Of a stretch of 64,000 nt of DNA, positions 30-63,205 are shown piece by piece; the stretch's first letter is position 1; each line of letters opens with the position of its first letter. This DNA comes from a virus, in the IMG/VR virus record IMGVR_UViG_3300025168_000053, positions 16,262 through 80,261 of that record. One strand, written 5' to 3'. The notes beneath the pieces were generated by a model, which was not told the DNA's origin, ran no database searches, and was given only the letters and a program-made list of their open reading frames with translations. A program made the translations under genes and the position numbers.

Positions 30-260
30 ATGGAGAACAACATGATGAATGATCCAAAGAACTTTGGTAAATCAAAGGATGTTGTTTTTGACACTTCATG
101 GGATTTGATGAAGTTTGGCGATTGCCCAGTTTGTCTTGGCGATCATATGGCTTGCCCTACACCTGATGTTCCAATGTCAGCATGTGGGACTCGAAGAAAC
201 GCAATTAAACACATGATGCGAGGCAAAGGTGGAAGACCCCCAATGATCCTCCGCCAGTAA
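30..260 (+). CDS. Accessory protein (probably 5'-truncated) carrying the FxxxWxxMK tag followed by a small Cys-rich domain
   Basis: Frame is open back to the window start. VFDTSWDLMK (87-113) is followed by CPVC..C..C. Confidence 0.6.
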   Translation: MENNMMNDPKNFGKSKDVVFDTSWDLMKFGDCPVCLGDHMACPTPDVPMSACGTRRNAIKHMMRGKGGRPPMILRQ

Positions 261-273
261 GGAGGGATAGACG

Positions 274-1854
274 CTGCCAGAAATCTTCAATCCAGGTCAT
301 CGGCCAAGTTCGCCTTTGTTCCCAGAAGAACTGGTATATTGTAGCGTTGATGACGTTGCCAATTTTCTTCAACTGCCCCTCCCCGATCCAGTGGCACTAT
401 CTGGCGATAGCATCGTTGCTGGTGATAATTTGAAATTGCCAATAACTGGTGCAAATTACAGGCGTTGGAAAATTGAGAAGGACACCTCAATTACTGTTTA
501 TGATGATGCAAATGCGCTTGGCGATACCTACACTGTATTGACCGTTGAAAGCGGCAGTAGTGGCAACGTCAATGTCATTGTTGAGCAAATAGCCAGCGAA
601 ACATATTCCACCGCCAATGGCGCACAAATACAAATCAATTCGGCATTAACCAATAGCAAAGAACGTGGATTGACGAAATCACAGGTTGAATCACTTATCC
701 GTGAAAAGCAAGATTACATTGATACCGTGTGCCGTATGACATGGAGGCCGCATATTGCTTCTGATCAGTATTACAATTTCACCACCTTCAAACCGTATAG
801 AAGACGGTATTATACTGATTATGTGGGTGCTGTTTATCTTCGACATAGGGCAGTTCAAAGAATCCTTCGTTTGAGCGTTTGGCAAGGCGACAAATACCGA
901 GAGTTGGGTTCGTCAATTGCTAAGTTTGAAGTTAAGCATAATTCAATCACCGCTACGGATAAGTTGTTCCTATGCCCTGGTGTGCCTCATACGGCTACGC
1001 TGGAACGTGGAAAGACTTTGACTACGTGGGATGGGGATTTTGGGCATAAAACAACCGCACAGAACATTGCGAATCTCATTAACAAAGATACGGCAACTTC
1101 ACGTGGAGATATTGCGATTGGGACTTTGACTGAGAATAGCAAACAACTCAATGTGGATAATGAGTATTTGGCAACGGCCAATAGTGATGAAGGAGATGGA
1201 TTTGTCACTATCTCATCTATGCGTTCAACAGAAGAAGGTGAGGATTCAACCATTGCTACAACCAATCGAGAGGCTTTTGAGTTCTCATTGGTGCATGACC
1301 CTGAAAGCGCAATCACTAATGTTGATGGATCGAACTTTACCGTTGCTAATGGAAGCACCTTTAGCGAAAGAATAGGGTTGGTTTTTTACACCAAATCGGA
1401 AACAACTTATGTTGCTCGATGTAGCCGTTTGGCGAATGTATTCACTGTTCAAGCCGAGTTGGTGGCAGGTTTTACATCAAATCTGGCAACTGATATTGTA
1501 GTGAAGCAATTGCGATTCAAAACCGACATCATAGATGAAGCCCGTCAAAAGGATTGGTGGGCTATGGAGGATAACGGGGCAATCATGTTCAACAATCAAT
1601 ATCCGTTCTATGAAAACCATTCAATCAAAGTATCATACATATTTGGAGAGCGATATTTGGATAAGGTCATTAAAGAGGCTTGCATCAAAATGGTTTGCAT
1701 GGATATATACCTCACTGATGATTATACAGTTCTTTTCCCAGAAGGAACAAGCAACATAGACTTGAATACAAAAGTGCAAAAGTTGGATGAAGAAGTCAAG
1801 CGAATGTTAATTCCTTATCAAGAAACAATCATTGTTGCAGGGATGGGTGGTTAA
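274..1854 (+). CDS. Virion neck / head-tail adaptor-like structural protein
   Basis: First gene of the neck-tail block. N-terminal YCSVDDVANFL and C-terminal VSYIFG..IKEACIKMV resemble gp6/gp15-type adaptors. Start placed at CTG 274, after GGAGGG and an in-frame TAG at 268; the track start is TTG 316. Confidence 0.6.
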   Translation: MPEIFNPGHRPSSPLFPEELVYCSVDDVANFLQLPLPDPVALSGDSIVAGDNLKLPITGANYRRWKIEKDTSITVYDDANALGDTYTVLTVESGSSGNVNVIVEQIASETYSTANGAQIQINSALTNSKERGLTKSQVESLIREKQDYIDTVCRMTWRPHIASDQYYNFTTFKPYRRRYYTDYVGAVYLRHRAVQRILRLSVWQGDKYRELGSSIAKFEVKHNSITATDKLFLCPGVPHTATLERGKTLTTWDGDFGHKTTAQNIANLINKDTATSRGDIAIGTLTENSKQLNVDNEYLATANSDEGDGFVTISSMRSTEEGEDSTIATTNREAFEFSLVHDPESAITNVDGSNFTVANGSTFSERIGLVFYTKSETTYVARCSRLANVFTVQAELVAGFTSNLATDIVVKQLRFKTDIIDEARQKDWWAMEDNGAIMFNNQYPFYENHSIKVSYIFGERYLDKVIKEACIKMVCMDIYLTDDYTVLFPEGTSNIDLNTKVQKLDEEVKRMLIPYQETIIVAGMGG

Positions 1855-4786: not shown

Positions 4787-4811
4787 ACAAAAGAAAACAA
4801 CGGTGAATACA

Positions 4812-5168
4812 ATGCGATTAACGGGAACTGTGAATGTTGATGGAAAGCGAGTAAGTTTAGATTGGCGAATTGACGGCATATCTGTCAAGGCTGGACCAGG
4901 GCTATCAGCCGATGATGTCCGAGTTCATACCTCAATTCCCGATTTGGCGGCATCTGTTCGTGGCGCACCTGCGCCTCTAAAAGAAGTCGAAACAAACCGA
5001 TGGGATGCAATGACTGTCACCGATCTTCGAGTCGAATTAACAAACCGAGGATTGACTGTATCTGGTAAAAAGGATGAACTGATTGCACGTTTGCTCGAAT
5101 ACGATGCCGAACCTGTTGAAGAAGAAGTTGTTGAAGAAGGAGAGGATGAGGATGAGCAATCCGAATAA
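4812..5168 (+). CDS. SAP-domain DNA-binding protein
   Basis: WDAMTVTDLRVELTNRGLTVSGKKDELIARL matches the SAP/HEH motif; acidic tail. Confidence 0.8.
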   Translation: MRLTGTVNVDGKRVSLDWRIDGISVKAGPGLSADDVRVHTSIPDLAASVRGAPAPLKEVETNRWDAMTVTDLRVELTNRGLTVSGKKDELIARLLEYDAEPVEEEVVEEGEDEDEQSE

Positions 5169-5511
5169 TCCCTTTGTATTAAGCAACAAACCTCAACGCC
5201 ACGAATTAGAAACCCCAGTTGGTTTGTTGGTTGTTTATGTCAAACCCTTGTCTTGGGTTGAGCAGCAAGAGGCCATGTCACAATTCGTTTCATTCAAAAC
5301 AGGAGAAGATGGAGGACTTGCGCCGAACATTGATTTGGGCGGTTATTGGAAATATGTCTTGACGAATTGTATTCAAAAGACTGAGCCAAACCTCAGCAAA
5401 AAAGACCTTCTCAATCTTACGCCAGAAGTAGGGGCTGTTATCAAAACAGTTCTCCCAGACCTCAATGAAATCATCGGACAATTTGCGGCTGGTGTAAGCC
5501 CTTTGGATTGA
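5152..5511 (+). CDS. Tail assembly chaperone (lambda gpG-like)
   Basis: Between tail tube and tape measure; GGAGG upstream of ATG 5152; slippery heptamer before the stop. Confidence 0.7.
   Translation: MSNPNNPFVLSNKPQRHELETPVGLLVVYVKPLSWVEQQEAMSQFVSFKTGEDGGLAPNIDLGGYWKYVLTNCIQKTEPNLSKKDLLNLTPEVGAVIKTVLPDLNEIIGQFAAGVSPLD
5499..5505 (+). other. Putative -1 ribosomal frameshift site C CCT TTG
   Basis: XXXYYYZ heptamer in the correct codon phase; the -1 frame runs directly into ORF 5508-5870. Confidence 0.6.
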
Positions 5512-5870
5512 CTTACGAGGATTTAGTTTCATTCCTCGATGAAGATTTAGATGAAGATGAGCGACCCGATCTCAATGTCACTCAGGCAACAATACTTTCT
5601 TATCAAGCAATCACTTTTGGTCTTGGAACTCATTTTGGTTGCCCCCCTCACTTTTGGGATGATCAACCACCAGACCGTGTTATGCTTGATTACATGATTA
5701 TGCGAGCAGCAAATGAAAAGAAAGCGGAGATGCTTGAGAGAATGAAAAAACAGGCTGAAAGGCAAATGAAACACGGAAGAGGCAATAAGGGGCAACCTAT
5801 ACGCACAACGAGCGATGGCGACTCTTTAGATGATTTCTTTGAGCGACATAATCAAAAAGTGATGGAGTGA
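5508..5870 (+). CDS. Tail assembly chaperone, C-terminal (gpT-like) part of a frameshift fusion
   Basis: -1 frame relative to 5152-5511, only a TTG start, immediately before the tape measure. Confidence 0.6.
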   Translation: MTYEDLVSFLDEDLDEDERPDLNVTQATILSYQAITFGLGTHFGCPPHFWDDQPPDRVMLDYMIMRAANEKKAEMLERMKKQAERQMKHGRGNKGQPIRTTSDGDSLDDFFERHNQKVME

Positions 5871-5874
5871 TAAA

Positions 5875-7302
5875 ATGTCCGATGAGATGAATAAGTTTCT
5901 ATCGGCACAGTCCAAGTTGAACACCCTTGCGAAAGAACAGGGTAAATCAATGAACATTCTTAACATGAAATACAAATTGATTAACAAAACATTAGGTCCA
6001 TTTTATCGCAAGTATGTTGATTTGAAAAATACTGCTGAAACCGTAGTGGATGTTTTTGAAGAGGTCGGTGCTTCGACTGAAAAATTGGCTAAGGCAACCG
6101 ATCTTCTTCTAAAGCCAGTGACAGGAGTTTTGAAAGCATTCACCCAAATAAACACAATTATGATTTTTGTTTTAGGCGCATTTGCATTGGTTGGTGCGGC
6201 TATATTTTTACTCACCAAATCATTTGGAGGTGGTGAATCGGCCTTTGCCGCTTTCGGAATGGTTGTTGAGGCAGGTAAAGGTGTCATTGAGGCTTTTATG
6301 GGTGTTGTAAGTGCTGTCGGAGATGCGGTGGGCGGTATTGACTTTGAAGGGTCGGCAGGGGTGTTTATACCAATGTTAGAAGGTATTTTTGTATTCCTTT
6401 CAAACATCCTCACCTTGTATCTTACTTTCATTGGTGCGGTATTGACTGGAATTGGAGATATTGTCACACGTATGGATGAAGCGGGTATGTTTCAAAGGAT
6501 CGTGGATGCCTTCGGAACATTCTTTGGTCTTGTCGGCATGGCTTTAGGAATCATAATGGATGCGTTTGATGATACAGGAATTACAATGGATGATTTAATT
6601 TCAGGTATTGAGAACGCTGTAAATGGATTTGTCAATTTCTTGTTCAACAGTGGACTCATTGAGTTTGCAGTTCAAGTGATTGAATACGTTGCGGTGTTTT
6701 ATGGCGTATTAGCAGTTGTTATTGCTTCTGTTATTGCACTTTTCATCAAGATTTGGGGAATTGTTGGCCCCCCATTGGTTCGATTTGTTAGTGCGTTTTT
6801 CAGTTTCCTTGAGCCAATTATTCGGATTGTGACGGGAATAATCGGACTAATTATGAATGCAATTATGGGGCTTATTGGCTGGCTTGCGCCATATTTTGAG
6901 GATGCGATGGATGGCCTAATGTATATCCTTGAGCCGATTCTTGACGTTATCACCACGATTATTGATGGGGCTTCGGAAGCACTTTCATTTGGAGGCGATC
7001 TATTGGGCGGTGCTGCTGATTTCATGGGCTTTAATGACGGCGGAGTAGCAAGTGGACCGAAAAGCGGCTATCCAGTCACACTACACGGAACGGAGGCAGT
7101 TGTCCCTCTTCCAGATGGTCGAACAATCCCCGTATCAATCAAAGGCGGCATGGGGGGCGGTTCATCCACCAATACCAACATTACAATCAATGTAAGCGGT
7201 GGAGGGAATGCTAAAGAAATCGCAAAGGCCGTCAGCGATGAAGTAAGTAAAGTCATGAGAAACCGTTCAAGGGGCGGCAACTTCACAAGAGGGGTGATTT
7301 GA
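5875..7302 (+). CDS. Tail tape measure protein
   Basis: 475 aa, long amphipathic/hydrophobic helical repeats, C-terminal FNDGGVASGP..LHGTEAVVPLPDG typical of tape measure ends. Confidence 0.85.
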   Translation: MSDEMNKFLSAQSKLNTLAKEQGKSMNILNMKYKLINKTLGPFYRKYVDLKNTAETVVDVFEEVGASTEKLAKATDLLLKPVTGVLKAFTQINTIMIFVLGAFALVGAAIFLLTKSFGGGESAFAAFGMVVEAGKGVIEAFMGVVSAVGDAVGGIDFEGSAGVFIPMLEGIFVFLSNILTLYLTFIGAVLTGIGDIVTRMDEAGMFQRIVDAFGTFFGLVGMALGIIMDAFDDTGITMDDLISGIENAVNGFVNFLFNSGLIEFAVQVIEYVAVFYGVLAVVIASVIALFIKIWGIVGPPLVRFVSAFFSFLEPIIRIVTGIIGLIMNAIMGLIGWLAPYFEDAMDGLMYILEPILDVITTIIDGASEALSFGGDLLGGAADFMGFNDGGVASGPKSGYPVTLHGTEAVVPLPDGRTIPVSIKGGMGGGSSTNTNITINVSGGGNAKEIAKAVSDEVSKVMRNRSRGGNFTRGVI

Positions 7303-8583
7303 TTGCCAAAGATTCAATTGATACGAAGGGATAGCACTATCATAGAACTCGAAGCAACAAGCATCGGCATTTCGATCCAACGCAACGTTTTGGTTCACCC
7401 TATTCCTTTGTTGGCGACACGTGCAGCGTTGGACCTTAACCAACCTCAAGTTGGCATTGTTATTGATGGAATTATTACCGATGATGAAGAAGCAAAAGGG
7501 GCTTCGGCTGCTGAATTAACTCTTGATTTATCCCTTGCATTTGGAAATGCAGGTGCAACTTCATGGTATCTATCCGCCCTTCCAAACGGATTCGCATTGG
7601 GTGGCGGTCTTGGCGCAAATTGGCCTAACATCAAAACACAAATCCATTTAGCAACAATCAAGTTTCAAACCAAAGGCCAAGTTGTGGCTGGACTGGGTGA
7701 AGCAAATGAAATTAGGCTGTATAATGGCAGTTTAGCGAATACAGTTGCTACAAAAAGCGTCATCAATGTGAACGTTTCATCCACCACCAACACATCAACG
7801 CTTTCAACGGCCATTGTAAATGCTTTGAATGCGGCAAGTATCAAAGTTGATACTGCAACCGTATCTCTTTCATCCCATGTCACCGTTTCAACCAAAGCAG
7901 GTCAAGCGGCGGCAGTATCATATCAAAATCAAAACGGTTCAATCGGAACATACTCGAATGAAATGATTTCAATAAGAAACGTTCAAACAGGAGAATTAGG
8001 CAATACGATTACAAACGTGATGAAACAAAGTGGAACGAGCAATACCTCATGGGAGAAGCAATTCTTTGTCACCAATATGACTGGCGGTGTTGATGGAATA
8101 CAGATGACACGTGGAGATAAATTACAAGACCTCATCAACGCTGTGACAAATCCAAGTGCTGGTGGTGCTTTAATTAGTCCACAGGTATTGACTGGATCGG
8201 CAATTGACTTGCCAGATTCTATTGCTTCTTTTGATTCAGCGCAATTTTTACGCATAGATCAAGCAAAGTCTGTTAAAAAATACATTGTAGGAGTTCGCAT
8301 CCCCTATGAATCGCTTGTTTCATCAGCATCAGGCAACAGGGAATTGAGGCAATTCTTGATACCTGCTGGACCAGGAACCGACCATTCGGCAATATCGAAT
8401 ACTGAATCTTATGACCCAGTGGATATTATCAACAACAAGGCAGTTCGCCCAAACCCGTTTTTGAGGCAAGGTGTGGCTATACCAGTTGTTGTTCAATCCT
8501 TCGACCCTGGTTATGAAGCGGGTGATTCGGTGTGGACTTATCAAATCAACCTCGCACCAGTTGAACAGTTGGTGGGGTTGTGA
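7303..8583 (+). CDS. Distal tail / baseplate hub-like protein
   Basis: Directly follows the tape measure; beta-rich; GGTGA SD before TTG. Confidence 0.55.
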   Translation: MPKIQLIRRDSTIIELEATSIGISIQRNVLVHPIPLLATRAALDLNQPQVGIVIDGIITDDEEAKGASAAELTLDLSLAFGNAGATSWYLSALPNGFALGGGLGANWPNIKTQIHLATIKFQTKGQVVAGLGEANEIRLYNGSLANTVATKSVINVNVSSTTNTSTLSTAIVNALNAASIKVDTATVSLSSHVTVSTKAGQAAAVSYQNQNGSIGTYSNEMISIRNVQTGELGNTITNVMKQSGTSNTSWEKQFFVTNMTGGVDGIQMTRGDKLQDLINAVTNPSAGGALISPQVLTGSAIDLPDSIASFDSAQFLRIDQAKSVKKYIVGVRIPYESLVSSASGNRELRQFLIPAGPGTDHSAISNTESYDPVDIINNKAVRPNPFLRQGVAIPVVVQSFDPGYEAGDSVWTYQINLAPVEQLVGL

Positions 8584-23425: not shown

Positions 23426-23923
23426 ATGGGCGCATTTGAACAAACATGGGCGTTTATCAAGTTTGATGATGAATCACCAACGCCTTATTTGAGCAATTCT
23501 TGTAAGCGTTGCGAAGAACAATACCCGTTAATGCACGACCCCGACATACCCCCTTCAAGTCCCGACTTTCCAATACATGAACATCTCGCAACTTCTATGT
23601 GTAAAAAATGTCGCCACGATAAATTATCGGAATTAAAATGGACTCACGAAAACCACCCCGCACCAGACGTTATTGGCCTTGATGATCGACGAATGCTTAA
23701 TCACCTTGTTGATATTGGGAAATTAAAGGATGGGCAAGAGTCCACACAGAATGAGTTGGACTTTTTGAACACCCCTTGTATGATGAGTCAAACACGGTAT
23801 GAAAATGACAGGGAAGATTCTTCGAGAGCATGGATGAAACCTTTGCCCCCATGCACTTGCGGAGGATGCCCACCTCTAAGGTGGTATGAACGAATGCAGG
23901 GAATACCAGAAGGGATGGAATGA
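23426..23923 (+). CDS. Cys-rich accessory protein with N-terminal tag
   Basis: Begins MGAFEQTWAFIK; contains CxxC pairs. Confidence 0.65.
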   Translation: MGAFEQTWAFIKFDDESPTPYLSNSCKRCEEQYPLMHDPDIPPSSPDFPIHEHLATSMCKKCRHDKLSELKWTHENHPAPDVIGLDDRRMLNHLVDIGKLKDGQESTQNELDFLNTPCMMSQTRYENDREDSSRAWMKPLPPCTCGGCPPLRWYERMQGIPEGME

Positions 23924-48350: not shown

Positions 48351-49970
48351 TCACATTGGAGGCATTGGTGGCCCACCAGGAGATGGATTCATTCTAATGA
48401 CATCATCAATTCGGAGAATCATAATTGCTGCTTCTGTTGCTGAGGTCAATGCTTGAACGTGTAGTGCCAACGGTTCAACAATTCCTTGTTTCATAGCATT
48501 ATGAGGGTGTTCTTTTGTTTGAGGATCAACGTCAATGAAATACGAATAATCGCCATCAGCATTATTTTTGCACAAAGCGAGTAATTCATCAACAGGATCG
48601 AGTCCAGCATTCTCAGCAATCGCTGAGGGTATTTGTAGCAAAGCATCAGCAAAAGCATCAACGGCCATTTGAACACGGCCTTCTGGTCGGCAATGCTTCT
48701 TTAGAGCGTTATACAGGTATGCTTGAGTAGCACCGCCGCCCAAAAGGAATCCTTCATTCTTCTTCATCAGCCACGCCACGCCGACACAATCTTCGAGCGC
48801 ACGTTCCACTTCTTCGGCAACGTGCTTTGTTGCGCCACAGGCAACGATTGTTTGAATTGGCGAGCCTTTTGTTGTCAATAATATCAAATCGTGATCGAAC
48901 TTACCAGATACAAGGAAGTTGCATTGTGCCAAATCGAAGTCGTCTATTGGATTTGTAAGGCTGGAAACGATATTCCCCCGACCAATCCGACTGGCCGAAT
49001 CAAGGTCGGACTTCTTAACAGAATGAACGGCTGAAATGTTATGCTTTTTGAGGTAATGCAAAGCGAGGTCGTCAATTTTCTTTTGGGTCAAAACAACATT
49101 TGCGCCAGATTGGTGAATCAATTCCACCATGTCACGTATTGCGTCTTCTTCTTGTCGAAGGAACTCTTCAACCTGTGCTGGATTGGTAATTTGAACCTGA
49201 GCATCTATGTTGGTTTTCTTTGGCTCAATAGCGCAATCCAAAAGGAGAATCTTTGCGTTTTCCACTTGACGTTCCATTGTTCCGCTTGCTAAATCTCTCT
49301 CGATCACGATACCAGGCAATCGGTATGTATCTTCTTCATTTGTTCCGCTTGCTGAGGTATAATGAATGTCTTCAATGGAGTTGGCGTTCAAAGTGGCTTC
49401 CTCGGCCATCGTTGCCAATTTATTTTGGATTCCTTCGGCTGATTTGCCAGTTATGGAACTGAATGCTGCGAGATAGGCTATGCTCTTTAGCGAATCCTCG
49501 TATTCGTATGCCATCTCCGAATTGATTTTTGAAAGACCTTCTAATTCAGTTATGCAAAAGTCTCTTGCAGTTCGGAATCCTTTGCAGATCGTGGTTGGAT
49601 GAATGCTCTTATCCAACAAACGTTCCGCTTCTTCGAGAAGTGCGCCAGAAAGAACCACCGCACTTGTTGTTCCATCGTAGCATTGCGCTTCTTGAGTCTT
49701 AGCCACTTCAACAATCATCTTGGCTGAGGGATGCTCAATGCCAATCTCTCGAAGTATTGATACTCCATCGTTGGTAATGAGGACATTCCCAGTAGGATCA
49801 ATGAGCATCTTATCCATGCCCAATGGTCCAAGAGTTGTTTTGATAGCAGCACCAACCGCTTTGGCGGCTTGAATGTTGCTTCTTTGGGCTGCTGAACCGT
49901 TTGTTTGTTCAGTTCCCTTTTGCATGATATACACAGGCTGTTGGCCGTTGTTCGCAGGTTGCATGGTCAT
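48351..49970 (-). CDS. ths: Thermosome subunit (group II chaperonin)
   Basis: [36 protein letters not shown]-like [22 protein letters not shown]. Confidence 0.95.
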
Positions 49971-53619: not shown

Positions 53620-53644
53620 ATCCACACCCAGAAGGGTATATCAA
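53620..53644 (-). promoter_or_regulatory. Conserved promoter motif (copy 3)
   Basis: TTGATATACCCT TCTGGGT GTGGAT. Confidence 0.7.
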
Positions 53645-56600
53645 TAATCCTCTCCCGTAAGACCATCAATGGCCTTTGTTTCCACAAAGTTGCCCAGGGC
53701 AACATCATAGGCATATTTGGAATAGAGTTCGCCAATGTAATTGACAACCGCATCAGGGGATTGGGAATCGCCAGCATTGATGCCACCCAATTCCTTTGGG
53801 ATCGGGACATTTATTTTTGATTGTCTAACACCATTCGCCACTGAAATGCCATCCTGTTGCATGGCTGAGATGTGCCAGTATTGCGTAGCACCTCTCGGCA
53901 AAGAGAGAACGTATTTTTGGGCTGATGATGGCGACGAATCGTAGGTGTCGTTGCGATATTTCAGCACCCGTTGTTCTGTTTCATTGTGAATCAAAGCGTA
54001 TTGATACCCTCTTGAAACCTTACGGAGTAATTGGCTTGAGAACAAATTGTGATATTGAATTGGATTGGCTTCAACACGCTCAAAATAGAATCCTTGAACC
54101 TCGCCCTCGCTCATGTGCCGAGCCTGTTGAATGTCCTCATATTGAGGGTTCTGGGCTTCCCAGGCATCGAAGTCATCCATGCTCATTGCGACCACTTTAC
54201 CCTCAACGGTTTCGAGTTCAACGTATTCTGTTTCAGTAGTCCAGTCATGGCCGTCATCATCGTTGCCATCATCGCCACGATCCTCATCGCCGCCTTCACA
54301 GGATGAACAAACACGCTTGGATTCAAGTTCCTCAGTGGTGCTGTCAATCATCTCATCAAGGCTGATGTTCACAAGGACTGAGCCGCATGAATCAGGGGCG
54401 ATTTCACCGCCCATGTGCTTCTCGAACTTGCCAGATTTAGAATGGGTGTCATATCGAATACGGCAAAGGTGGCCGTCGCACTTGCAGCAAGTTCCGTGTT
54501 CCTCTCCCTCAGCGATGATGGTTTCACATTCAACGCACCGATCATCATTAGGGGTGTCGCATACGCAAAGTTCCAATCCACAGTCTTGACAGTCATCGCT
54601 CTCAGGGGTGTCCTGTGGCGACTCTTTGACCTCGTTTGGTATGTCGTTGCACATCAAGTCCATGTCGAGGTCATAAGCACCCTGTAATCGCTGTTCAACG
54701 TCTTGAGCGATTTGACCCTCAAGTTCACCATTGACAATGATGTTTTGCTTTTGCGCCCTGCTGTATGCAACGTAGCCCATTGACACTTCATTGACGGCTG
54801 ATTCTGGCGAGGCTTCACAGGCTCGCTTATTCATGAAACAGGATTGAACAGTTGGGTTGCCGTCTTCATCGTCTTCAACAATCGAATTGACAATGAACAT
54901 GACCTCGGCCTCATCGCCTTTGTAGCGATGGATTGTAGCGATGTGAACAGCATTGCCGCCACGCTCACTGAACAACGTATCATTGACCCAGTTCTTGAGA
55001 GCATCAGCGAGGTTCTTTCCTTTGACTTCACCATCGCTGCGAGATCGGTGAAGAGATACAAACGCCTCAAGGAGTTCGATGTTGCCCATGAACTCTTGAA
55101 ATGCGGTGGATTGAGCCATGCTCTTTGTATCACCTTTGAACAGGTCGGAGTATTTGGCGAGAGCAACCTTTCTAATGCTCTCAATGTCCCTCAAGAGCAA
55201 GGAATGTTGCTTGACCTTAGAAGCATCCATCTTGTGCCATCCAAGCCCAAGCATGGTCTTTCCATTCACATTCTTGTATGACTCATCCAAAGCCCCAGAA
55301 CGCATCATGTTGGCGGCTGAGAATGCTTGAGTGACAAGACCATCCTTGCCGCTTGGAGTTGATACTGGAATGCCGTTCATGAGGAACGTCTTGATGAAGC
55401 CAGCGAGAGGCTTCTTGAGGCGACAAAGGAGGCCAAACGTGGTGTCCTCACCATGAAGTTCTCTTGACTTGTGATATGCCTTGACAATCTCATCACCTTC
55501 GATTTGAATAGGCGCAGCACCGACAGGCCAGAAGTCATATCCAGCCTCAAGCGGAGATCGGTGTGCTTGATAATCTGGGAGGTCAATGTTGGCGTGATAA
55601 CGACGTGCAATATCAGCGAACTGAGCAGTAGCATACTTGACAGATTGAGCAACCATATCAGTGCCTCTCCAACAGATAGTCTGTGGATAGAATGTAGCAT
55701 CAATGGCCTTTGCATTGTCCGAAAATGCCTGACTTGAAGCCCCCGCAAATAAATAGATCGCCTGGCGCAAATCGCCCACCATGACCTTGTGTGCATCCTC
55801 TTTCACCAATCGCCAAACCAATTGAGCCTTGAGAACTGAGAGGTCTTGAACCTCGTCAATGAACATGACATCAGCCTTCTCATGCTGAGGGATTTGAAGA
55901 TCGAGAGCGTGTGGAAGGTAAATCTGGTCGGCCATGCTGAGAACCAACACACCCTTGCCACCACTGGTGGATGAGGATTCAACAACCTCTAACGACTCAT
56001 CATCAAGCATATTGTGGAACTCATCACCGAACTTCTCAGCGAGCAATGCAACGACCTTCTCAACACAATTGGGCTTGACAATGCCGAGTCCTAAAGAAGT
56101 GTCATAACGCCGCCATGTTTTGATGTTTTCACCATTGACAATAGCATTGCCGTTCTTTCCGAACTGAGTTCCGAATCCTTTTCCACCGATCTTCTTCAAG
56201 TGGCCTCCATTCTCAAAGGAATAGATGATGTGGCCTTTGTGCTTCTTGACAATGACCTTCGCCTCAGTATCAAATGACACCGACTTGACACCGCTTTTCT
56301 TCTGGGTATCAGCAGGTGGGAATCGGCAACCGCCTGTCTCAAGGATGGCGAACTCAGCCTTCTTGACCATGTTTGGGTCGGTGGTGCGAATCTGTTTTGA
56401 CATAGGCACAGCATCCTCCCACCATCCACGTTGATTCTTGTTTGGAACAACAGCATCCATGACGGACTTTCCATCGCCACAGAATGGCTTCAATTGAACA
56501 TTCAAGAATGCTGTTTCGATAGCAACGGCAAGGATCTCAACAACCAATTGGAACACCGATTGGTCGCCCAGATTGCGAGCAGGGTTCTCATCCCATGACT

Positions 56601-57411
56601 GATTGACACCGACTCGCTGAACAACCTCAGCAATGGCCTTCACGTCATCCTCATGGACTGTTGGAGGAATGTATGGGGTCGGAACTTCACGGTCAATGGT
56701 GGATTCTGGAACAAAGCCCTCATCCATCACCATGTTGGCAACCTTGACCAATCCTTCACCGATCATGTTGTTGAAGGCATGAGATGTGGTCTTGACCTGC
56801 ATGGCCTTTCGAGCGTTCTCAAGCAATGCTGAACGGTCTTCACGGCCCAACCAACCTGCAAGGGTCAAACGGGCGATTCTAATGTATCTGTCATCACCGT
56901 ATTTCAGCATTGAAATATGAGAGAATCCATCAGCATGAGCCTTGTTCAACAACAATTGGTTGCCACCTGCATTGACGGTGTTATTGTTGCCGAATATCTT
57001 GACATTCAATCCATCAGTGGATTGGAACTGGATGAGGATGTCTTTACTGGACTTAGCAATGTGGGTATTGAAGGCGGTCATGGCCGTCAAGAGTTCAGGG
57101 GCAAGCCTGGAAACAATGTGGGTCATGCCCTGCAATAGAGAGGTCTTACCTGAACCTGCTACGGCTGATACTGCGATTGAGATCGGCTTGCCACCATTGC
57201 GAGATTCATAGAGAGCCTTAGCGAATGCTCTCAGCACCCTCAGTTGTTCCCAAGACCATTTGTTGCCGTTCCTATCCACTTCTGGAATACCTGCCTCAGC
57301 ATCCCTATGCAGGGTGATGGCAAGGGCAAGGTTCTCAGCCGAACTGAGGAACGTGTTGAGGCTGATGAAGACAGCCATGAAGAGGGAGAGAGCGATGACT
57401 GAGAATATCAT
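53641..57411 (-). CDS. UvrD/Rep-family SF1 helicase with long insertions and C-terminal Zn-finger/acidic extension
   Basis: AVAGSGKT, AFN, FIDEVQD, VGDLRQAIYLFAGA, TIHRYKGDE, YVAYSRA. Confidence 0.9.
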   Translation of the reverse strand: MIFSVIALSLFMAVFISLNTFLSSAENLALAITLHRDAEAGIPEVDRNGNKWSWEQLRVLRAFAKALYESRNGGKPISIAVSAVAGSGKTSLLQGMTHIVSRLAPELLTAMTAFNTHIAKSSKDILIQFQSTDGLNVKIFGNNNTVNAGGNQLLLNKAHADGFSHISMLKYGDDRYIRIARLTLAGWLGREDRSALLENARKAMQVKTTSHAFNNMIGEGLVKVANMVMDEGFVPESTIDREVPTPYIPPTVHEDDVKAIAEVVQRVGVNQSWDENPARNLGDQSVFQLVVEILAVAIETAFLNVQLKPFCGDGKSVMDAVVPNKNQRGWWEDAVPMSKQIRTTDPNMVKKAEFAILETGGCRFPPADTQKKSGVKSVSFDTEAKVIVKKHKGHIIYSFENGGHLKKIGGKGFGTQFGKNGNAIVNGENIKTWRRYDTSLGLGIVKPNCVEKVVALLAEKFGDEFHNMLDDESLEVVESSSTSGGKGVLVLSMADQIYLPHALDLQIPQHEKADVMFIDEVQDLSVLKAQLVWRLVKEDAHKVMVGDLRQAIYLFAGASSQAFSDNAKAIDATFYPQTICWRGTDMVAQSVKYATAQFADIARRYHANIDLPDYQAHRSPLEAGYDFWPVGAAPIQIEGDEIVKAYHKSRELHGEDTTFGLLCRLKKPLAGFIKTFLMNGIPVSTPSGKDGLVTQAFSAANMMRSGALDESYKNVNGKTMLGLGWHKMDASKVKQHSLLLRDIESIRKVALAKYSDLFKGDTKSMAQSTAFQEFMGNIELLEAFVSLHRSRSDGEVKGKNLADALKNWVNDTLFSERGGNAVHIATIHRYKGDEAEVMFIVNSIVEDDEDGNPTVQSCFMNKRACEASPESAVNEVSMGYVAYSRAQKQNIIVNGELEGQIAQDVEQRLQGAYDLDMDLMCNDIPNEVKESPQDTPESDDCQDCGLELCVCDTPNDDRCVECETIIAEGEEHGTCCKCDGHLCRIRYDTHSKSGKFEKHMGGEIAPDSCGSVLVNISLDEMIDSTTEELESKRVCSSCEGGDEDRGDDGNDDDGHDWTTETEYVELETVEGKVVAMSMDDFDAWEAQNPQYEDIQQARHMSEGEVQGFYFERVEANPIQYHNLFSSQLLRKVSRGYQYALIHNETEQRVLKYRNDTYDSSPSSAQKYVLSLPRGATQYWHISAMQQDGISVANGVRQSKINVPIPKELGGINAGDSQSPDAVVNYIGELYSKYAYDVALGNFVETKAIDGLTGEDY

Positions 57412-59367: not shown

Positions 59368-60423
59368 ATGGTGAATGCTTTCAAGACGAGTTGGGATGCT
59401 CTAATTAAGAATCGCCCACAACGTCCAGATTATTTTATTGATGCTCAACCTGCTGATTCAAATGTTGATCTTGGCGAGATGATGCAAGACTTTTCGATGC
59501 CAGAAGTTGATATTAAAGACATAGGCGGAGATGGAGATACTTGCTGTGCCGATCTCCGAACAGGTATGGCAAATCTAATCACACATTCCGACAATCATTA
59601 CGGTGGTTTATCAGGGCAAATGGCTGAGGCTTTGCATGGGTCTATTGATTTTGATGAAGGCATTGAAGGGGCATCATGTGAAACATTGGTTGATGCTTTG
59701 AAAAGTGCAATAAGTTATGGTGAATATGCCTTTGAGCAAGGAGGGAACACCGTTGCATATTGGAAAGATTACGGGTTTGACAGCGAGCATCACGCAATGT
59801 CCGAGCATCGAGAACTTCATGATGATGAGGATGGCAAGCATGAGATGGATTTATTGAATCGTATGCGTCAATTAAAATTAGAATATGAGGCTTGTAAAAT
59901 GGGTGGATTTGATGATGCAAAAGAAAGTGAATCCACAGGGTTCTATGCAAGTGCCGAACCATTTGAATTGGCTTGGGATTCCATTCGTAAAGAAGAAGAA
60001 TACGTTGAAATCGAATATGAAAGTGGTGAAACAATTCAGTTAAGTTTCAAAGAGTTTGATAAAATCAAATTGGATTGGGAAAACGATGATGATATTGTAG
60101 CGGTTAGAACTTATCGAGGCGACGAAGTATCTCAAATCCTAAAATCGGATGAATCAGCCATTGAAGTTCGAGATCGTTCCCTCGCCATTCTCGCCAGTAT
60201 GGGTTTGAAGTGGGATGAGAACCCGCTAAGGCCGCAACATGAAATGCCCGTTCACGCTGATGGAAGAGATTTGTCGGATGATGAATACGAACAGTTGATG
60301 AAAGTTCCAGCGTTCAATAAAGCAGTTTGGGATTTGACTAATGTTTGGGCATTGAGCAATGAGCGAAGAGAACAAATAATGCAGTATGCAAGGGAAAACC
60401 GCATAGGTGGTTTTGATGTTTAA
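59368..60423 (+). CDS. Acidic multi-module accessory protein with two tags
   Basis: AFKTSWDALIK at the N-terminus and PFELAWDSIRK internally; GGCTTTATT ends 24 nt upstream. Confidence 0.75.
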   Translation: MVNAFKTSWDALIKNRPQRPDYFIDAQPADSNVDLGEMMQDFSMPEVDIKDIGGDGDTCCADLRTGMANLITHSDNHYGGLSGQMAEALHGSIDFDEGIEGASCETLVDALKSAISYGEYAFEQGGNTVAYWKDYGFDSEHHAMSEHRELHDDEDGKHEMDLLNRMRQLKLEYEACKMGGFDDAKESESTGFYASAEPFELAWDSIRKEEEYVEIEYESGETIQLSFKEFDKIKLDWENDDDIVAVRTYRGDEVSQILKSDESAIEVRDRSLAILASMGLKWDENPLRPQHEMPVHADGRDLSDDEYEQLMKVPAFNKAVWDLTNVWALSNERREQIMQYARENRIGGFDV

Positions 60424-60574
60424 TCTGTGGGTATTGTTTTGGCTTGCTTTCATTGCAGGTTTCTTTTCAATGTGGGTGTCTCTTGACGATCTCGGAAGCA
60501 ATGTAGTGATATTCACCAGTGATGAAGAACTGCAAGAACTTTGTTGGGATGGCTTGAGGAAGGGAGAGCCATGA
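60416..60574 (+). CDS. 52 aa membrane peptide
   Basis: MFNLWVLFWLAFIAGFFSMWVSL; ATGA overlap with the next gene. Confidence 0.55.
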   Translation: MFNLWVLFWLAFIAGFFSMWVSLDDLGSNVVIFTSDEELQELCWDGLRKGEP

Positions 60575-62079
60575 TTAAGAAGTCCGACTTCAAGGTTGGT
60601 GGTCGCTTCTTAGGAGATAGGAGAAGGAATGATCCTTACGGCATTCATTTTAACGATGGACCGCAAACTTACCGTTATCGAGTTCCGATTGGAAAAGACG
60701 AGGATGGCAATTTGATTTATTCCGATTATGATCGTGAAGTGAGTAGTCGTGATTGGACTTACCCTGGTGAGATTTACAGACGGGCAAACGAAAGAGATAT
60801 TGTTTCACGTGAAGAATACAATGATATGTATTTAGATCCCGATATAAGCGGAGATCAGATGGGGCGAATCTTGCGAGATGCAAAGGAACAGGTAGCGATT
60901 CGCCAAATTGGTGATACGGCATCCCATGAGTCAGGGCATACCGCCCACGACATGACCGACCCTGAGCGACAAAATCACTATTGGGGGGAAAAACAAGCAA
61001 ACAGGCAGCGTGGAGGATATGGTTTGTTCGATACTAATTCGGACTCGGATGAAAAAAGTGTGGGTGAGTTCGTTGCCTATATGTCGGAATATCCGCATGA
61101 TAGCATCAAGTTTCGTCGAGGAATGAAGAATCATCCTGATGTTGGAGAACGTTATGTCAAAAGGATTAGAAATGCAAACATTGACGCAAATGAGAGTAGC
61201 CGAGCAAAAAGGAATGTTGTCAATGCAATTCTTGACCAAACGGCAACAACAGGAAAAAGAACTGGTGCTGGCAACTTCCAATTTGGCGACATTGATGAAG
61301 CAAGGAACAGGAAGAAGCAAGCCGAGCGCACTTCAAGAGCCTTGATTCGCCAAATCCAACAATTGCCAGATGAAGGAATTGAAGGCTTTGGTGATTTGCC
61401 GCAAGACATTCAAGAAGGGATTGGGCGTTTGCAGTTGCGAGATCAATTATCTCAATTCATGGATAACAATTTTGAAACGGCAAGGCAAGCAGAACTTAAC
61501 ACCTTGATGCACGATCCCAACTCGATTGATTTTGCTATTGCCAATCCTAAAATGTTCTTTGAGAACTATGACTCCGTTCCTGTTGATTGGGTGGAAGGAA
61601 AGGGTCGTTGGGATGATTATGTGTTGGGGAATGATGCGCTTTCAACCATTGCACACTATGACCATCATGGGCGTTATGACGAAAACCCAGAACTCCTTGA
61701 AGCATTGAAAGAAAGGTTTGGTGAGCCGACCAGCGATCAGGGTTGGGGATTGAAGCCGAAGGTCAAGTCAAATCCTTACATGAGAACGCCCTGGCAATAC
61801 TATGACCCTCGATTTGGAAGCGAGCCATTGCTTGACGACATAATTCATCAATACGGTTTAGCGGAAGATCGTGGAGTTGATTTTGATTCTTCAAGAGCCT
61901 TTATGAAATCTTGGGGCTTGATAAAGGCTGAACCTTTTTCGGGCAAGTTCCCTGCTAAATATCCAGGCAACTGCAAAGTCTGTGGAACTTATTTGAAACC
62001 AGGTCAAGAAGTGATGTATAATCGAATGCTCGGCGGAGTCACCTGTCCTTTTGATTGCGGGAGGGCTTACGTTGTCTGA
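60571..62079 (+). CDS. HExxH zincin-like protein, then tag, then C-terminal Zn finger
   Basis: TASHESGHTAH..GEFVAY; AFMKSWGLIKA; CKVC..CPFDC. Confidence 0.6.
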   Translation: MIKKSDFKVGGRFLGDRRRNDPYGIHFNDGPQTYRYRVPIGKDEDGNLIYSDYDREVSSRDWTYPGEIYRRANERDIVSREEYNDMYLDPDISGDQMGRILRDAKEQVAIRQIGDTASHESGHTAHDMTDPERQNHYWGEKQANRQRGGYGLFDTNSDSDEKSVGEFVAYMSEYPHDSIKFRRGMKNHPDVGERYVKRIRNANIDANESSRAKRNVVNAILDQTATTGKRTGAGNFQFGDIDEARNRKKQAERTSRALIRQIQQLPDEGIEGFGDLPQDIQEGIGRLQLRDQLSQFMDNNFETARQAELNTLMHDPNSIDFAIANPKMFFENYDSVPVDWVEGKGRWDDYVLGNDALSTIAHYDHHGRYDENPELLEALKERFGEPTSDQGWGLKPKVKSNPYMRTPWQYYDPRFGSEPLLDDIIHQYGLAEDRGVDFDSSRAFMKSWGLIKAEPFSGKFPAKYPGNCKVCGTYLKPGQEVMYNRMLGGVTCPFDCGRAYVV

Positions 62080-63205
62080 GTTTAACAAAAAGTGCAAAGA
62101 ATGTGGCGATTTAGTCAAGGACACCCATGAAGGCGTTCCATTTGTTGATGGAACGGCAATGTGCATGGATTGTTTTCTTGAAGATTACAAGCACTATGGG
62201 AAAAAGGTATTAGAAGCCTTAGAAGATGGTGGCGTGTTTGATGAAGAAATTGAAACCAGCGATGAGCAATGGTTTGACGACCCCGAATGGATCGAGATGA
62301 ATAGAGGCAAGCCTTTCGCTGTCGCTTGGGATTCCATCGCAAAAGAATGGAGTCCAAATTGGAGGGATGAGGCATCGAAGTTGCCTTTACATCAATTAGA
62401 TGAATACCTTGATTTGGATATGGGAGAAGGAACTGAATTGAGAACCTATGAACACCCGTCAAATCCTAATTTTGTTATCAAGAGGCCAATATCACTTGAC
62501 CCTACATTCCGTCGTCATTATGGAAAAAGCAAAGACCCTGAATTGGATCGGTTGAAGGAATTGGTTGAGTTGGGTTCAATTGAGATGAACTCAATAGAGC
62601 GTTTGCCTTACTGGGATGCTTTAGAAAGTCTTGGTTATCCTGTTGTTTCCTCCAAGTATTTTGGAACGGACCAAAGAGAATTAGGGAATTACTTTGTTCA
62701 ACCTCGAATGAGTTTGGATGAAAAAATGATTCCGCATAAAGTTGCAGATTGGAGAGTGAACCAAGATTTTCTTGAAGGAATAATGGAGAGCAATGGCAAG
62801 GGTGGCAAAATAGCCAACCCAATGAAAGACCCTGCGTTTGCAGCAGCAAATAGGGAATCACAAATCATAGATGAGATTTTGACGAATGCAGTTGGAGATC
62901 GGCATGGAGGCAATTTTGGTTTAGACCAAAAAGGCAATGAAAGAATGTTTGATCTTCAAATGCACTTTGGAGATGGAATCGGAGAATGGGATTCCGAAGA
63001 AATGCAACAAAGACAACAAACCTTGAACCAATATGGAATCCAAATCCCTGCCTCACGTATGTTGAACGCAATAACCGATGAGATGGTTGAAATTGACCCG
63101 TATGTTAGCAATTACAGGGCTTACCTTGAACGCCTTGAGCCATACTCGGATAACCCCAAGTATGTTGAAGTGGATGGTAAAGCAAAGTGGATGGAGGGAT
63201 ATTGA
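62072..63205 (+). CDS. Zn finger, then tag, then atypical (PI3K/HipA-like) kinase domain
   Basis: CKEC..CMDC; PFAVAWDSIAK; MGEGTE, FVIKR, GDRHGGNFG, MFD; GGAGGG SD before TTG 62072. Confidence 0.65.
   Translation: MSEFNKKCKECGDLVKDTHEGVPFVDGTAMCMDCFLEDYKHYGKKVLEALEDGGVFDEEIETSDEQWFDDPEWIEMNRGKPFAVAWDSIAKEWSPNWRDEASKLPLHQLDEYLDLDMGEGTELRTYEHPSNPNFVIKRPISLDPTFRRHYGKSKDPELDRLKELVELGSIEMNSIERLPYWDALESLGYPVVSSKYFGTDQRELGNYFVQPRMSLDEKMIPHKVADWRVNQDFLEGIMESNGKGGKIANPMKDPAFAAANRESQIIDEILTNAVGDRHGGNFGLDQKGNERMFDLQMHFGDGIGEWDSEEMQQRQQTLNQYGIQIPASRMLNAITDEMVEIDPYVSNYRAYLERLEPYSDNPKYVEVDGKAKWMEGY

Follow-up and report, generated by a model that had tools for sequence, protein, structure and literature searches.

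Phage T4 carries a packaged enzyme, Alt, which is an ADP-ribosyltransferase (ART), and its prohead protease, gp21, belongs to a family other than S78 and cleaves after Glu. In HK97, the protease tail, and in encapsulins, the cargo-loading peptides, represent short peptides that dock cargo inside an HK97-fold shell, while the p53 TAD-MDM2 pair exemplifies groove binding by an amphipathic helix of the F-x3-W-x2-L type. Among the T4 internal proteins, which differ widely, the capsid targeting sequence (CTS) is the only common element (PMC3012670), and DarA of phage P1 is a substrate of the prohead protease (PMC12810830). Here we analyzed a stretch of 64,000 nucleotides (the window) from an uncultured, magrovirus-like ocean virus of archaea, in which a short peptide tag recurs on accessory proteins; no published description of this tag system was found in the literature. 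Its closest analogue is the T4 CTS. By this analogy, and with a probability that we place near one half, it would be a portable address tag, with which cargo docks in the procapsid, is cut after the tag Lys by the head protease, and is delivered.

Extent, coding, and shape of the tag

The tag is a real feature: it is under selection as protein, forms a helix in models, is portable and clade-specific, and bounds modules. A six-frame regular-expression scan for F-x-x-[ASTV]-W-x-x-[MIL]-(x)-K gave 11 full matches in the window (at 87, 23435, 24303, 25030, 25733, 25981, 29061–29087 on the minus strand, 59380, 59962, 61900, and 62315) and a further, non-coding-frame match at 13481, taken as chance. 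The 12 copies of the original prediction, these 11 and a degenerate FTIAWDYTF, are all in place, and relatives show that the true extent is larger. Within the called ORFs, 11 hits in 20,954 aa compare with 0.055 expected (mean of 2000 residue shuffles; maximum 2). No copies were found in the tail genes (316–23424) or in the contig's 16 kb ahead of the window (terminase, portal, protease, MCP), and the minus-strand replication module has one only in ORF 28713–29105, close to its distal end; apart from that ORF, the scan agrees with the earlier observation that core tail and replication proteins lack copies. Tags lie at the extreme N-terminus (residue 3–5; 23435, 25981, 29087, and 59380), behind a short leader (87; also 25030, should translation start at ATG 25006), or internally between recognizable modules (24303, 25733, 59962, 61900, and 62315). 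The main array, of which this contig holds only the start, begins immediately past the divergent intergenic region and the strand-switch control region.

Two near-complete relatives carry ~23–24 tags per ~95-kb genome, and relatives share 76–99% of the capsid protein. The usual form in the clade is M-T-A-F-D-x-A-W-x-L-L-K at the extreme N-terminus, in closely packed arrays whose genes are translationally coupled. From the clade 246 unique tags were collected, ~85% of them at the extreme N-terminus and ~12% (~30 tags) internal; internal tags thus exist as the original prediction held, but with most tags N-terminal its polyproteins are a minority case. The MTAFDTAW coding pattern occurs in 32 IMG/VR stretches, and 185,579 prokaryote genomes (596 Gb) yielded just five hits, all bacterial, none of which continues as a tag and which are due to chance.

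The scale of cargo diversity bears on whether all tagged proteins are paralogues, the “tag” being no more than the conserved beginning of a domain that they share. Several cargos do open with CxxC Zn-ribbon-like modules, but this genome's ten tagged proteins have zero BLAST similarity to one another once tags are masked, and so the description of the cargo as unrelated holds. Moreover, 54 tagged proteins of a smaller set fall into 36 clusters and the 244 cargos of the clade into 104 BLAST clusters, the Pfam families differ (D12 methyltransferase, DUF5872, GP88, TFIIB Zn ribbon), and cargos range in size from 45 to 993 aa. By these measures a single family is effectively refuted at the sequence level, and we give it next to no weight. 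The largest cargo family has the ART fold, and of 233 cargos found in relatives, 196 lack a homologue in the genome analyzed here.

The conserved residues are encoded by varying codons (Phe, TTT 44 and TTC 14; Lys, AAA 40 and AAG 18; Ala, GCT, GCA, GCG, or GCC), from which it follows that the tag is conserved at the protein level. It is very improbable that the tag is instead a nucleic-acid element, either a 5′ leader for translational coupling or initiation or a recombination homology patch, encoding a functionless peptide. This reading would account for the identical 24-nt leader ATGACCGCCTTCGACACCGCTTGG in four adjacent genes of one relative (G002), for the “MT” at the tag start, which arises because tagged-gene starts overlap the preceding stop as ATGA, and for a codon choice within tag arrays that deviates from the genome average. 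However, clade-wide the wobble positions of Phe, Lys, Ala, and Leu vary while the residues are kept, variable positions track helical periodicity, the ~30 internal tags are distant from any start, and orthologues retain the tag despite quite different nucleotide and amino-acid sequences.

In a structure model the tag helix spans residues 3–11 and a cargo β-strand starts at residue 15; the tag is thus predicted to be a helix directly ahead of the cargo fold, in line with the helix and the new domain right after the Lys that had been proposed. It is modeled as a short amphipathic helix, F-x3-W-x2-hydrophobic. The tag ends in [D/S]-[L/I]-x-K followed by [A/S/G/M] (P4 [D/S], P3 [L/I/V], P2 any residue, P1 Lys). 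The terminal Lys is invariant, although its distance from the Trp differs between the 9-mer and 10-mer forms. Residues at P1′ are varied (A, M, E, S, G, F, D), and one third of tags have Pro at P2′, features that an S78 protease might or might not accept.

Tagged genes and the exchange of modules

In the structural module, directly 3′ of the head-tail connector genes, the small ORF 30–260 (plus strand, 76 aa from ATG) carries FDTSWDLMK (87–113) and then a Cys-rich FGDCPVCxGDxMACP module. Its orthologues, 3′ of the MCP in at least eight relatives, have the same Cys module and keep the tag in varied form (FEASWELMK, FTKAWDDLIK, FQKSWEDIIK, FSKGWTEVAK). Also on the plus strand, ORF 23426–23923 (165 aa) opens with MGA-FEQTWAFIK (23435–23461), followed by a Cys-rich cargo; a Pfam search with this ORF gave no match. 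In ORF 23886–24530 (plus, 214 aa), FGKSWDLMK (24303–24329) is internal, between an N-domain (residues 1–134) and a C-terminal Zn-ribbon-like module; the N-domain occurs as a cargo of its own with an N-terminal tag in L124, and in G001 an N-terminal tag is followed by the Zn-ribbon module alone. ORF 24871–25224 (plus; start GTG 24871 or ATG 25006) has FEMTWELMK (25030–25056) and then the N-terminal half of DUF5872. This tag and cargo are a separate gene in L003, L004, and G002, with the tag at residue 4–5, and in L002 the equivalent tag is internal, at residue 135.

The Cys-rich ORF 25221–25424 (plus, 67 aa) has at its very C-terminus the degenerate, truncated tag FTIAWDYTF (25395–25421), which abuts the stop. 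Because its L002 and L003 orthologues have a full tag, FNGAW[LT]IMK, and then an extra module (beginning ADEADVGICDGC), the window ORF has lost its downstream module. ORF 25436–25966 (plus, 176 aa) comprises the C-terminal half of DUF5872, internal FEAVWDSIIK (25733–25762), and a basic tail (GRFRGYTQSN...). At this locus L002 has a ~312-aa module and a second tag inserted between the equivalent tag and the basic tail, and L003 has a different module upstream. The final gene of the plus-strand (presumed late) block, ORF 25963–27177, encodes a D12-class N6-adenine DNA methyltransferase (Pfam PF02086, E 1.4e-6) with N-terminal FDAAWDMMK (25981–26007); orthologues with 70–82% identity retain the tag, its sequence varied.

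The sole minus-strand tagged gene in the window, ORF 28713–29105 (~126 aa), begins MV-FQRAWDLMK (29061–29087) and has a weak Pfam match to GP88; in G002 the equivalent minus-strand place holds two tagged genes. The first gene past the strand switch, ORF 59368–60423 (plus, 351 aa), is two-tagged, as is its G002 homologue, with FKTSWDALIK (59380–59409) at the N-terminus and FELAWDSIRK (59962–59991) internally. Directly ahead of the latter stands GFYASAEP, an extended motif of the internal class, and this class ([DE]F[YT]ASED.-FExAWD[ST][IL]xK) was found again in at least eight relatives. ORF 60541–62079 (plus, 512 aa), without a match in Pfam, combines an HESGH (HExxH) motif, internal FMKSWGLIK (61900–61926), and a C-terminal CxxC module, and its G001 orthologue has the same architecture. 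ORF 62051–63205 (plus) has a CxxC-containing N-terminal part, FAVAWDSIAK (62315–62344), and a ~290-aa cargo, for which nine homologous cargos were found; the relatives' tag is the 9-mer N-terminal form MTAFDxAWxLVK. This cargo may have a kinase-like fold: its AF2 model is poor (pLDDT 57), and the top Foldseek hits, with E 0.1 or worse, are all kinase-like.

Among close relatives (methyltransferase 73–82% identical), whole modules delimited by tags are inserted or lost, joined or split, which bears out the proposal that the tag marks module boundaries. One orthologous cargo may bear a 9-mer or a 10-mer tag, and degenerate tags also occur at C-termini. The cargo's own Met-Pro start is often retained directly behind the tag Lys, which fits acquisition of a ~36-bp leader and with it the predicted gain of effectors through a tag of ~30 bp.

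The head proteins and the head protease

The head protease is HK97-type (Peptidase_S78) and the MCP has the HK97 fold. No tag-like sequence above background was found in the MCP, protease/scaffold, portal, or G13, the original prediction having suggested a look at the scaffold, protease, portal, and capsid propeptide, and the full tag is present in no head protein. That prediction stands in part: the tag is portable, module-bounding, and helical as proposed, but polyproteins are not the norm and no head protein bears it. Five relatives have a small gene that bears an intact N-terminal tag and shows homology to the C-terminal ~100 aa of this genome's portal (E 4e-8, 5e-11); in ~37 relatives this tail is fused to the portal, with only a degenerate tag at the junction. 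The head module of L084 contains three tagged small genes, and one tagged gene is located amid connector and tail genes. This portal-tail fusion and fission, with the tagged small genes of relatives' head module, supports capsid targeting only indirectly.

Support for cleavage after the Lys is likewise indirect and comes from the tag-end motif and the MCP propeptide boundary. The motif [DST][LI]xK[ASGM] occurs 12 times in head proteins versus 1.75 expected (P<0.001, ~sevenfold enriched), a post hoc comparison in that the motif was defined with the tags already known; tail proteins have 2 versus 2.9 expected, and the replication module 7 (one of them a tag) versus 3.8. The head enrichment was reproduced in G002. 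The form [DE][LIMF][LIM]K[ASG] is confined to tags plus the MCP, G13, and G12. In the MCP, the candidate site DLLK|AD ends a 40-aa leader, and K-A-D is conserved behind ~100-aa N-terminal extensions of the MCP in haloarchaeal HVTV-1, HCTV-1, and HCTV-5. TILK|M lies at the S78 domain end, and at several candidate head sites the Lys is invariant across 36–55 relatives. Because the tag-end motif is otherwise enriched only in head proteins, the tag probably labels capsid cargo for clipping by the head protease.

Could the tag be a processing signal only, by which the S78 or a host protease frees modules in the cytoplasm, with no capsid loading? The sharing of the P4–P1 motif with head proteins, the internal tags between modules, and the interchange of fused and unfused forms would all suit such a role. 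However, cleavage at the ~85% of tags that are extreme N-terminal would trim just 12 residues, to no purpose if the leader had not already served some function, and the conserved upstream Phe and Trp make an amphipathic face needless for a cleavage site alone. Prohead proteases of the S78 clan, moreover, act within the procapsid. We consider this reading unlikely.

A less improbable alternative, though still a doubtful one, is that the tag helix docks on a non-capsid hub, e.g. a host factor or the virus thermosome (group II chaperonin; 48351–49970, Pfam Cpn60_TCP1, E 7.5e-132), whereby an array of early effectors, for host takeover or anti-defense, would be recruited, folded, or regulated, with neither packaging nor cleavage. 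The F-x3-W-x2-L spacing, classic for groove-binding amphipathic helices, implies insertion into a hydrophobic groove; the virus encodes its own chaperonin, the cargo looks effector-like, and head proteins lack the tag. The position of the main array, past the strand-switch region, is also typical of early host-takeover genes needing no packaging, and so counts against packaging, as does the spare head volume that at least 20 cargo species per virion would require. A docking tag absent from head proteins counts against it too, as does the different motif of the conserved protease/scaffold C-terminal tail (LDGWRAAE.., LDGWRAAEALAQRAL), which has no match to the tag and is common only to the small head protein G11. 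On the other hand, a non-capsid hub leaves unexplained the invariant Lys at varying distance from the Trp, the P4–P1 motif common to tags and head proteins, the portal-tail fusion and fission, the tagged genes within head and connector modules, and the free tolerance of fusion and fission at tags.

On the address-tag reading, we infer docking, Lys cleavage, and delivery as follows. The tag, placed N-terminally and less often at inter-module joints on a large, rapidly exchanged set of unrelated accessory proteins, would dock cargo as a helix on the procapsid interior (scaffold/protease, 1156-aa head protein, portal, or MCP inner face). The HK97-type (S78) prohead protease would then cut past the Lys, removing a 12-residue leader or parting fused modules, and the cargo would remain in the head and enter with the DNA at the next infection. 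Delivered cargo would include ART-fold enzymes, the Dam-like methyltransferase, the HExxH protein, Zn-ribbon proteins, and the possibly kinase-like protein, and new cargo would be gained through recombination at the conserved ~36-bp leader.

Comparison with known systems

The tag resembles the p53 TAD bound to MDM2 in presenting three hydrophobic residues with F-x3-W-x2-L spacing on one helical face, a purely structural likeness, with organism, partner, and function unrelated. An HK97-type protease and HK97-fold MCP ally the magrovirus with HK97 and the encapsulins; however, the HK97 tail and encapsulin peptides sit mostly at C-termini and do not act as cleavage leaders, and the magrovirus protease/scaffold tail has a motif other than the tag. 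In P1 Dar and the MuF-domain polymorphic toxins, the head holds enzymes, a DNA methyltransferase-type protein among them, that are co-ejected, as would be the case here. Instead of a 10-residue tag, P1 loading needs whole proteins (DarA/Hdf) and MuF toxins use a ~100–300-aa N-terminal domain; a Pfam scan of 52 tagged proteins found no MuF domain.

As with the T4 CTS (IPI-III, Alt; removed by gp21), a short N-terminal peptide is the sole common part of diverse, fast-evolving proteins, whose genes cluster in plastic loci, whose leader ends at a protease-type site, and whose cargo has an ART-fold family. The likeness is one of analogy, packaging and cleavage in the magrovirus being putative. In contrast to T4, the magrovirus protease is S78 (HK97-type) and cleavage would follow Lys; at least 20 genes per genome, ~1 gene in 6, are tagged, tags occur also at internal joints and, degenerate, at C-termini, and the host is an archaeon.

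Virus identity and tagged genes of the studied genome

The window spans bases 16262–80261 of a single viral contig of 80,261 bp, whose upstream 16 kb encode, in order, the large terminase, the portal, several small proteins, the head-module protein G13 (1156 aa), a Peptidase_S78 and the major capsid protein (MCP). The HK97-type prohead protease, which matches both Pfam Peptidase_S78 and the PHROG families of HK97-type head maturation proteases, bears a long scaffold-like C-terminal extension; the MCP has the HK97 fold and shares 31–32% identity with its counterparts in the haloarchaeal siphoviruses HVTV-1, HCTV-1 and HCTV-5, with nothing closer in the phage collection. In published magroviruses, the MCP is ~33% identical only to MCPs of haloarchaeal siphoviruses, and genomes of ~100 kb encode a thermosome together with an archaeal replication module; these viruses rank with the most abundant ones in surface ocean waters, and the majority of their genes lack annotation (PMC5434244). 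Judged from its sequence, the virus fits this description of magroviruses (Poseidoniales viruses) with respect to its MCP, the size of its relatives, the thermosome and an opposite-strand block of archaeal-type replication genes. IMG/VR holds 246 contigs with an MCP 76–99% identical to the studied one, and the relatives' genomes are 93–97 kb long (92.8 kb for G001 and 96.6 kb for G002, both near-complete). The minus strand of the window encodes a full-length group II chaperonin (the thermosome; 48351–49970; Cpn60_TCP1, E = 7.5e-132), a C5 cytosine DNA methyltransferase (34012–35106; E = 2.4e-60) and a protein of 1256 aa bearing UvrD-like helicase motifs (53641–57411), all untagged. The magrovirus and Poseidoniales-virus papers searched mention no N-terminal motif or hypervariable array.

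A six-frame scan of the window recovered the tag, F-x-x-[ASTV]-W-x-x-[MIL]-(x)-K, at every position of the original prediction, together with one extra match at 13481 in a non-coding frame. The called window ORFs contain 11 matches in 20,954 residues, compared with a mean of 0.055 and a maximum of 2 in 2000 residue shuffles. The degenerate copy FTIAWDYTF does exist, as the final nine residues of ORF 25221–25424. The tail genes (316–23424) are untagged, as had been claimed, and in the minus-strand module the tag is confined to ORF 28713–29105.

The cargos, i.e. the protein parts behind the tags, are unrelated, as had been claimed: in all-versus-all BLAST with tags masked, the ten tagged proteins of the studied genome show no mutual similarity, nor do tagged proteins within a genome generally, and a paralogous family was rejected on this basis. 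Pfam searches of the tagged window proteins returned a D12 methyltransferase, two separated halves of DUF5872, a weak GP88 match, or no family; cargo matches are few and diverse, and no Pfam or PHROGs family spans the tag, which is thus not a known domain. The DUF5872 N-half (profile positions 1–41) lies behind the tag in ORF 24871–25224, and the C-half (55–110) lies ahead of the tag in ORF 25436–25966. The halves are separated by a Cys-rich ORF in the window and by two tagged genes in G002. ORFs 60541–62079 and 316–1854 are each exactly 512 aa long; the former carries an HESGH sequence and a tag, and the latter is an untagged structural-module protein that is 55–80% conserved in relatives.

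Distribution, portability and cargo of the tag

Tags number ~23 in G001 and ~24 in G002, where arrays are dense (16 tags inside 11 kb in G002). In the majority of cases the tag sits at residue 4 and the gene's ATG overlaps the preceding stop codon (ATGA); the consensus is M-T-A-F-D-x-A-W-x-L-L-K. A tag HMM gave 64 matches above the best reversed-sequence score in five genomes, and 301 tags (246 unique) over all loci collected. An ATG lies exactly three codons upstream in 147 of the 246 unique tags and within eight codons in 199, with many others beginning with TTG. Truly internal tags, located between modules of one ORF, number ~30 and belong mostly to the 10-residue class, which is extended upstream to [DE]F[YT]ASED.-FExAWD[ST][IL]xK. 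In more distant members of the MCP clade (the genome G003, comprising loci L096–L099, and loci L084, L113 and L118), F-[DE]-x-A-W-x-V-[AV]-(E)-K replaces the ..W-x-L-[LM]-K form.

In IMG/VR, the MTAFDTAW coding pattern was found in 32 stretches, at up to 6 copies apiece. An exact-pattern scan of 596 Gb of prokaryote genomes yielded 5 matches, about the chance expectation, all of them bacterial and none with an LLK continuation; for the exact pattern, a tag in cellular or host genomes was rejected on this basis.

Close relatives, with methyltransferases 73–82% identical, differ by entire tag-bounded modules. Where the window reads ..KPTVVKSDP-FEAVWDSIIK-GRFRGYTQSN.., L002 inserts a ~312-aa module and a second tag ahead of GRFHGYTQSN, and L003 bears a different module upstream; the truncated terminal FTIAWDYTF of the window corresponds in both of these loci to a complete tag with another module behind it. 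The tag with the DUF5872 N-half forms a gene of its own in L003, L004 and G002 and is internal in the window and L002. Similarly, the N-domain of ORF 23886–24530 is an N-terminally tagged cargo in L124, and the cargo of ORF 62051–63205, which has a 10-mer tag in the window, follows an N-terminal 9-mer tag in seven relatives. Internally tagged ORFs, proposed to be polyproteins, are a minority: five window ORFs and ~30 tags across the clade join modules that are found separately elsewhere, but an N-terminal position is the rule for ~85% of tags.

Across the clade, different codons are used for the conserved F, K and A residues, and selection therefore acts on the peptide; this wobble variation and the internal copies rule out a DNA- or RNA-level element as the sole explanation. 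Homogenization at the DNA level inside arrays is nonetheless real. Four adjacent tagged genes of G002 (4803–7650 of its locus L092) share an identical 24-nt 5′ sequence, ATGACCGCCTTCGACACCGCTTGG, with codons GAC, ACC and GCT that are atypical for the genome. Recombination or gene conversion thus also spreads the leader as DNA, and the identity of the four copies suggests that this spread was recent. Taken together, we are highly confident that the tag is a portable, protein-level, clade-specific element bounding exchangeable modules on a hypervariable cargo set.

The 244 cargos (median length 156 aa) form 104 BLAST clusters, of which 66 are singletons, and 196 of 233 cargos from relatives have no homologue in the studied genome. 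The largest family (22 members of ~150–200 aa; L092:5515–6141 and 21 other loci) has a conserved [YF]HGT...IPPE pattern and no member in the window. Its profile matched DarT (E = 7e-4) and the RNA 2′-phosphotransferase Tpt1 (E = 1e-3) in the PDB. An AF2 model (pLDDT 80) predicts the tag as a helix over residues 3–11, with lower confidence than the domain, whose first strand begins at residue 15. The top Foldseek matches to this model all have the ADP-ribosyltransferase (ART) fold (Tpt1/KptA at 2e-3, Arr, pertussis toxin S1, RES and PARP), and the family is, according to the model, of this fold. The family of ORF 62297–63202 gave a poor AF2 model (pLDDT 57) with uniformly kinase-like, non-significant Foldseek matches; a kinase identity for ORF 62051–63205 was rejected, as profile searches against PDB sequences also returned only noise.

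Head proteins and the putative cleavage site

The original prediction raised the possibility that a head protein itself carries the tag. This was not borne out: none of the proteins encoded in the upstream 16 kb has the tag, and the tag HMM found no match in the protease/scaffold, MCP, portal or G13, the only trace being a degenerate relic at the portal-tail junction. The portal (4109–5914 in contig coordinates, outside the window) is ~600 aa long in the studied genome and ~37 relatives, with a ~100-aa C-terminal tail behind a Gln/Gly-rich linker. In L072, L077, L084, L113 and L118 the portal is 505–561 aa long and is followed by a separate small tagged gene, a homologue of the portal tail (E = 4e-8 and 5e-11), with the N-terminus MTA-FDQAWSVVK-R.. 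and the tag variants FEKAWKMVK and FDTAWGVVEK. Fused portals conserve the junction ..GGQPVQK-[GT]D[DE]x[FL]xDPNMMFK-RT.., in which the relic is found (e.g. ..DDT-FSDPNALFK-RT..). The portal C-terminus faces the capsid interior; hence the portal-tail protein has an intact tag when free and, when tagless, is covalently anchored inside the head. With respect to gene context, L084 has three small tagged genes within the head module, and the tagged Cys-rich gene at 30–260 of the window is conserved amid connector and tail genes.

The C-terminal tail of the protease/scaffold (11552–12895, outside the window), ..LDGWRAAEALAQRALRGE, contains a conserved Trp-centred motif that differs from the tag. Across the whole genome, L-[KD]-[DG]-W-[ER]-A-A-E is restricted to two proteins, the S78 protease/scaffold and G11, a 104-aa head-module protein (6727–7041), in both of which it lies close to the C-terminus; more than 50 relatives conserve it strongly. 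By analogy with the C-terminal tail of the HK97 protease, this motif may be the true shell-docking tail.

Counting back from the Lys (P1) unifies the 9-mer and 10-mer tags, with Trp at P5 in the former and P6 in the latter. P1 is Lys in 242 of 246 tags, P2 is L/V/M/I or small, P3 is L/I/V in 233 of 246 and P4 is D/S/A/G. The motif derived from these positions, [DST][LI]xK[ASGM], was defined post hoc; so defined, it occurs 12 times in the head module (3790 aa) against 1.75 expected (P<0.001; ~7-fold), twice in tail proteins against 2.9 expected, and 7 times in the minus-strand module (one being the tag) against 3.8 expected. The stricter form [DS][LI]xK[AS] gave 8 versus 0.71, 0 versus 1.04 and 4 versus 1.58, respectively, and motif counts in G002 follow the same pattern. 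A related form, [DE][LIMF][LIM]K[ASG], is confined to tags and to the MCP, G13 and G12, another head-module protein. The MCP site DLLK/AD (the slash follows P1) closes a 40-residue leader and has an invariant Ala-Asp; its Lys is retained in HVTV-1, HCTV-1 and HCTV-5, behind an N-terminal extension of ~100 aa. The Lys is invariant at several head sites in 36–55 relatives, and one site, TILK/M, is found where the S78 catalytic domain ends. An alignment of the MCP N-terminus from 60 relatives is conserved throughout and does not single out the site. The [D/S]-[L/I]-x-K pattern, with the proviso of its post hoc definition, would be that expected of a prohead-protease site; a literature search on S78 cleavage specificity yielded nothing usable.

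The residues behind the Lys may count against cleavage, with P1′ and P2′ being permissive (A 66, M 56, E 26, S 25 and G 20 at P1′) and Pro frequent at P2′ (83 tags). The sequence K-M-P resembles a start codon of the cargo itself, left in place behind an acquired leader.

The main rival explanation, in which the tag is a docking helix for a non-capsid hub on early effectors, draws on the tag-free head proteins and on gene order: the main tag array starts immediately after a divergent control region, a position equally typical of early host-takeover genes, and the virus-encoded thermosome would be an alternative hub. On the plus strand of the circular G002 map, the tagged array is followed by ~12 kb of unknown genes, the terminase, head and tail genes and a second tagged cluster, and the replication module lies on the opposite strand from the array. 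The array is thus co-oriented with the late genes, an arrangement from which expression timing does not follow. We consider the non-capsid hub unlikely. The fission and fusion of the portal tail, the gene context and the post hoc motif enrichment make capsid loading with cleavage after the Lys the best single explanation, to which we give an even chance of being correct.

Implications and comparison with known systems

Capsid loading may form part of a plug-in virion cargo system, a proposal that we make tentatively, as it is somewhat more probably wrong than right, in which a ~36-bp leader would turn any gene into a capsid-loaded, protease-released and injected effector. A gene would acquire the leader, or a tag-bounded cassette would be spliced in via recombination between tags; the tagged product would be loaded in the capsid, freed by the protease and injected before any viral gene expression. 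If true, abundant archaeal viruses of the ocean would possess a hypervariable arsenal, with more than 100 cargo families in ~35 contigs, among them ART-fold enzymes, a methyltransferase and a possibly kinase-like protein. No earlier system of capsid targeting and cargo delivery would then be known from archaeal viruses, and this one would be far larger than that of T4.

A single tag accounts for the organization of about one-sixth of the genes and defines a fast-evolving accessory set, over 100 families strong, that probably serves host takeover or counters host defence. If capsid loading holds, the range of virion-delivered effectors and of T4-like internal-protein biology would widen to include archaeal viruses, dozens of orphan genes would become testable as to which are packaged and what they target in Poseidoniales, and foreign proteins could be loaded into an HK97-fold capsid by means of a 10-residue handle. 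Should its partner prove not to be the capsid, the tag is still a clean bioinformatic marker of the accessory effectors of this clade.

Among known systems, packaged toxins of the MuF type differ in that Pfam searches found no MuF domain (SPP1 gp7-like) in 52 tagged proteins. With respect to loading peptides of the encapsulin/HK97-protease type, the tag is not on the native protease/scaffold, whose tail differs. The T4 capsid targeting sequence comes closest: like the tag, it is a short N-terminal leader on diverse fast-turnover cargo, encoded in plastic loci, and the site at the end of the tag would be of a protease type, as in T4. Unlike T4, the present system has a protease of the S78 family, Lys at P1, at least 20 genes per genome, internal joints and a probable archaeal host. 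As judged from the protease, which is HK97-type, there is no sign of homology between the two. Because the protease is S78/HK97-type, the tag is best described as working like the T4 system and not as a member of it.
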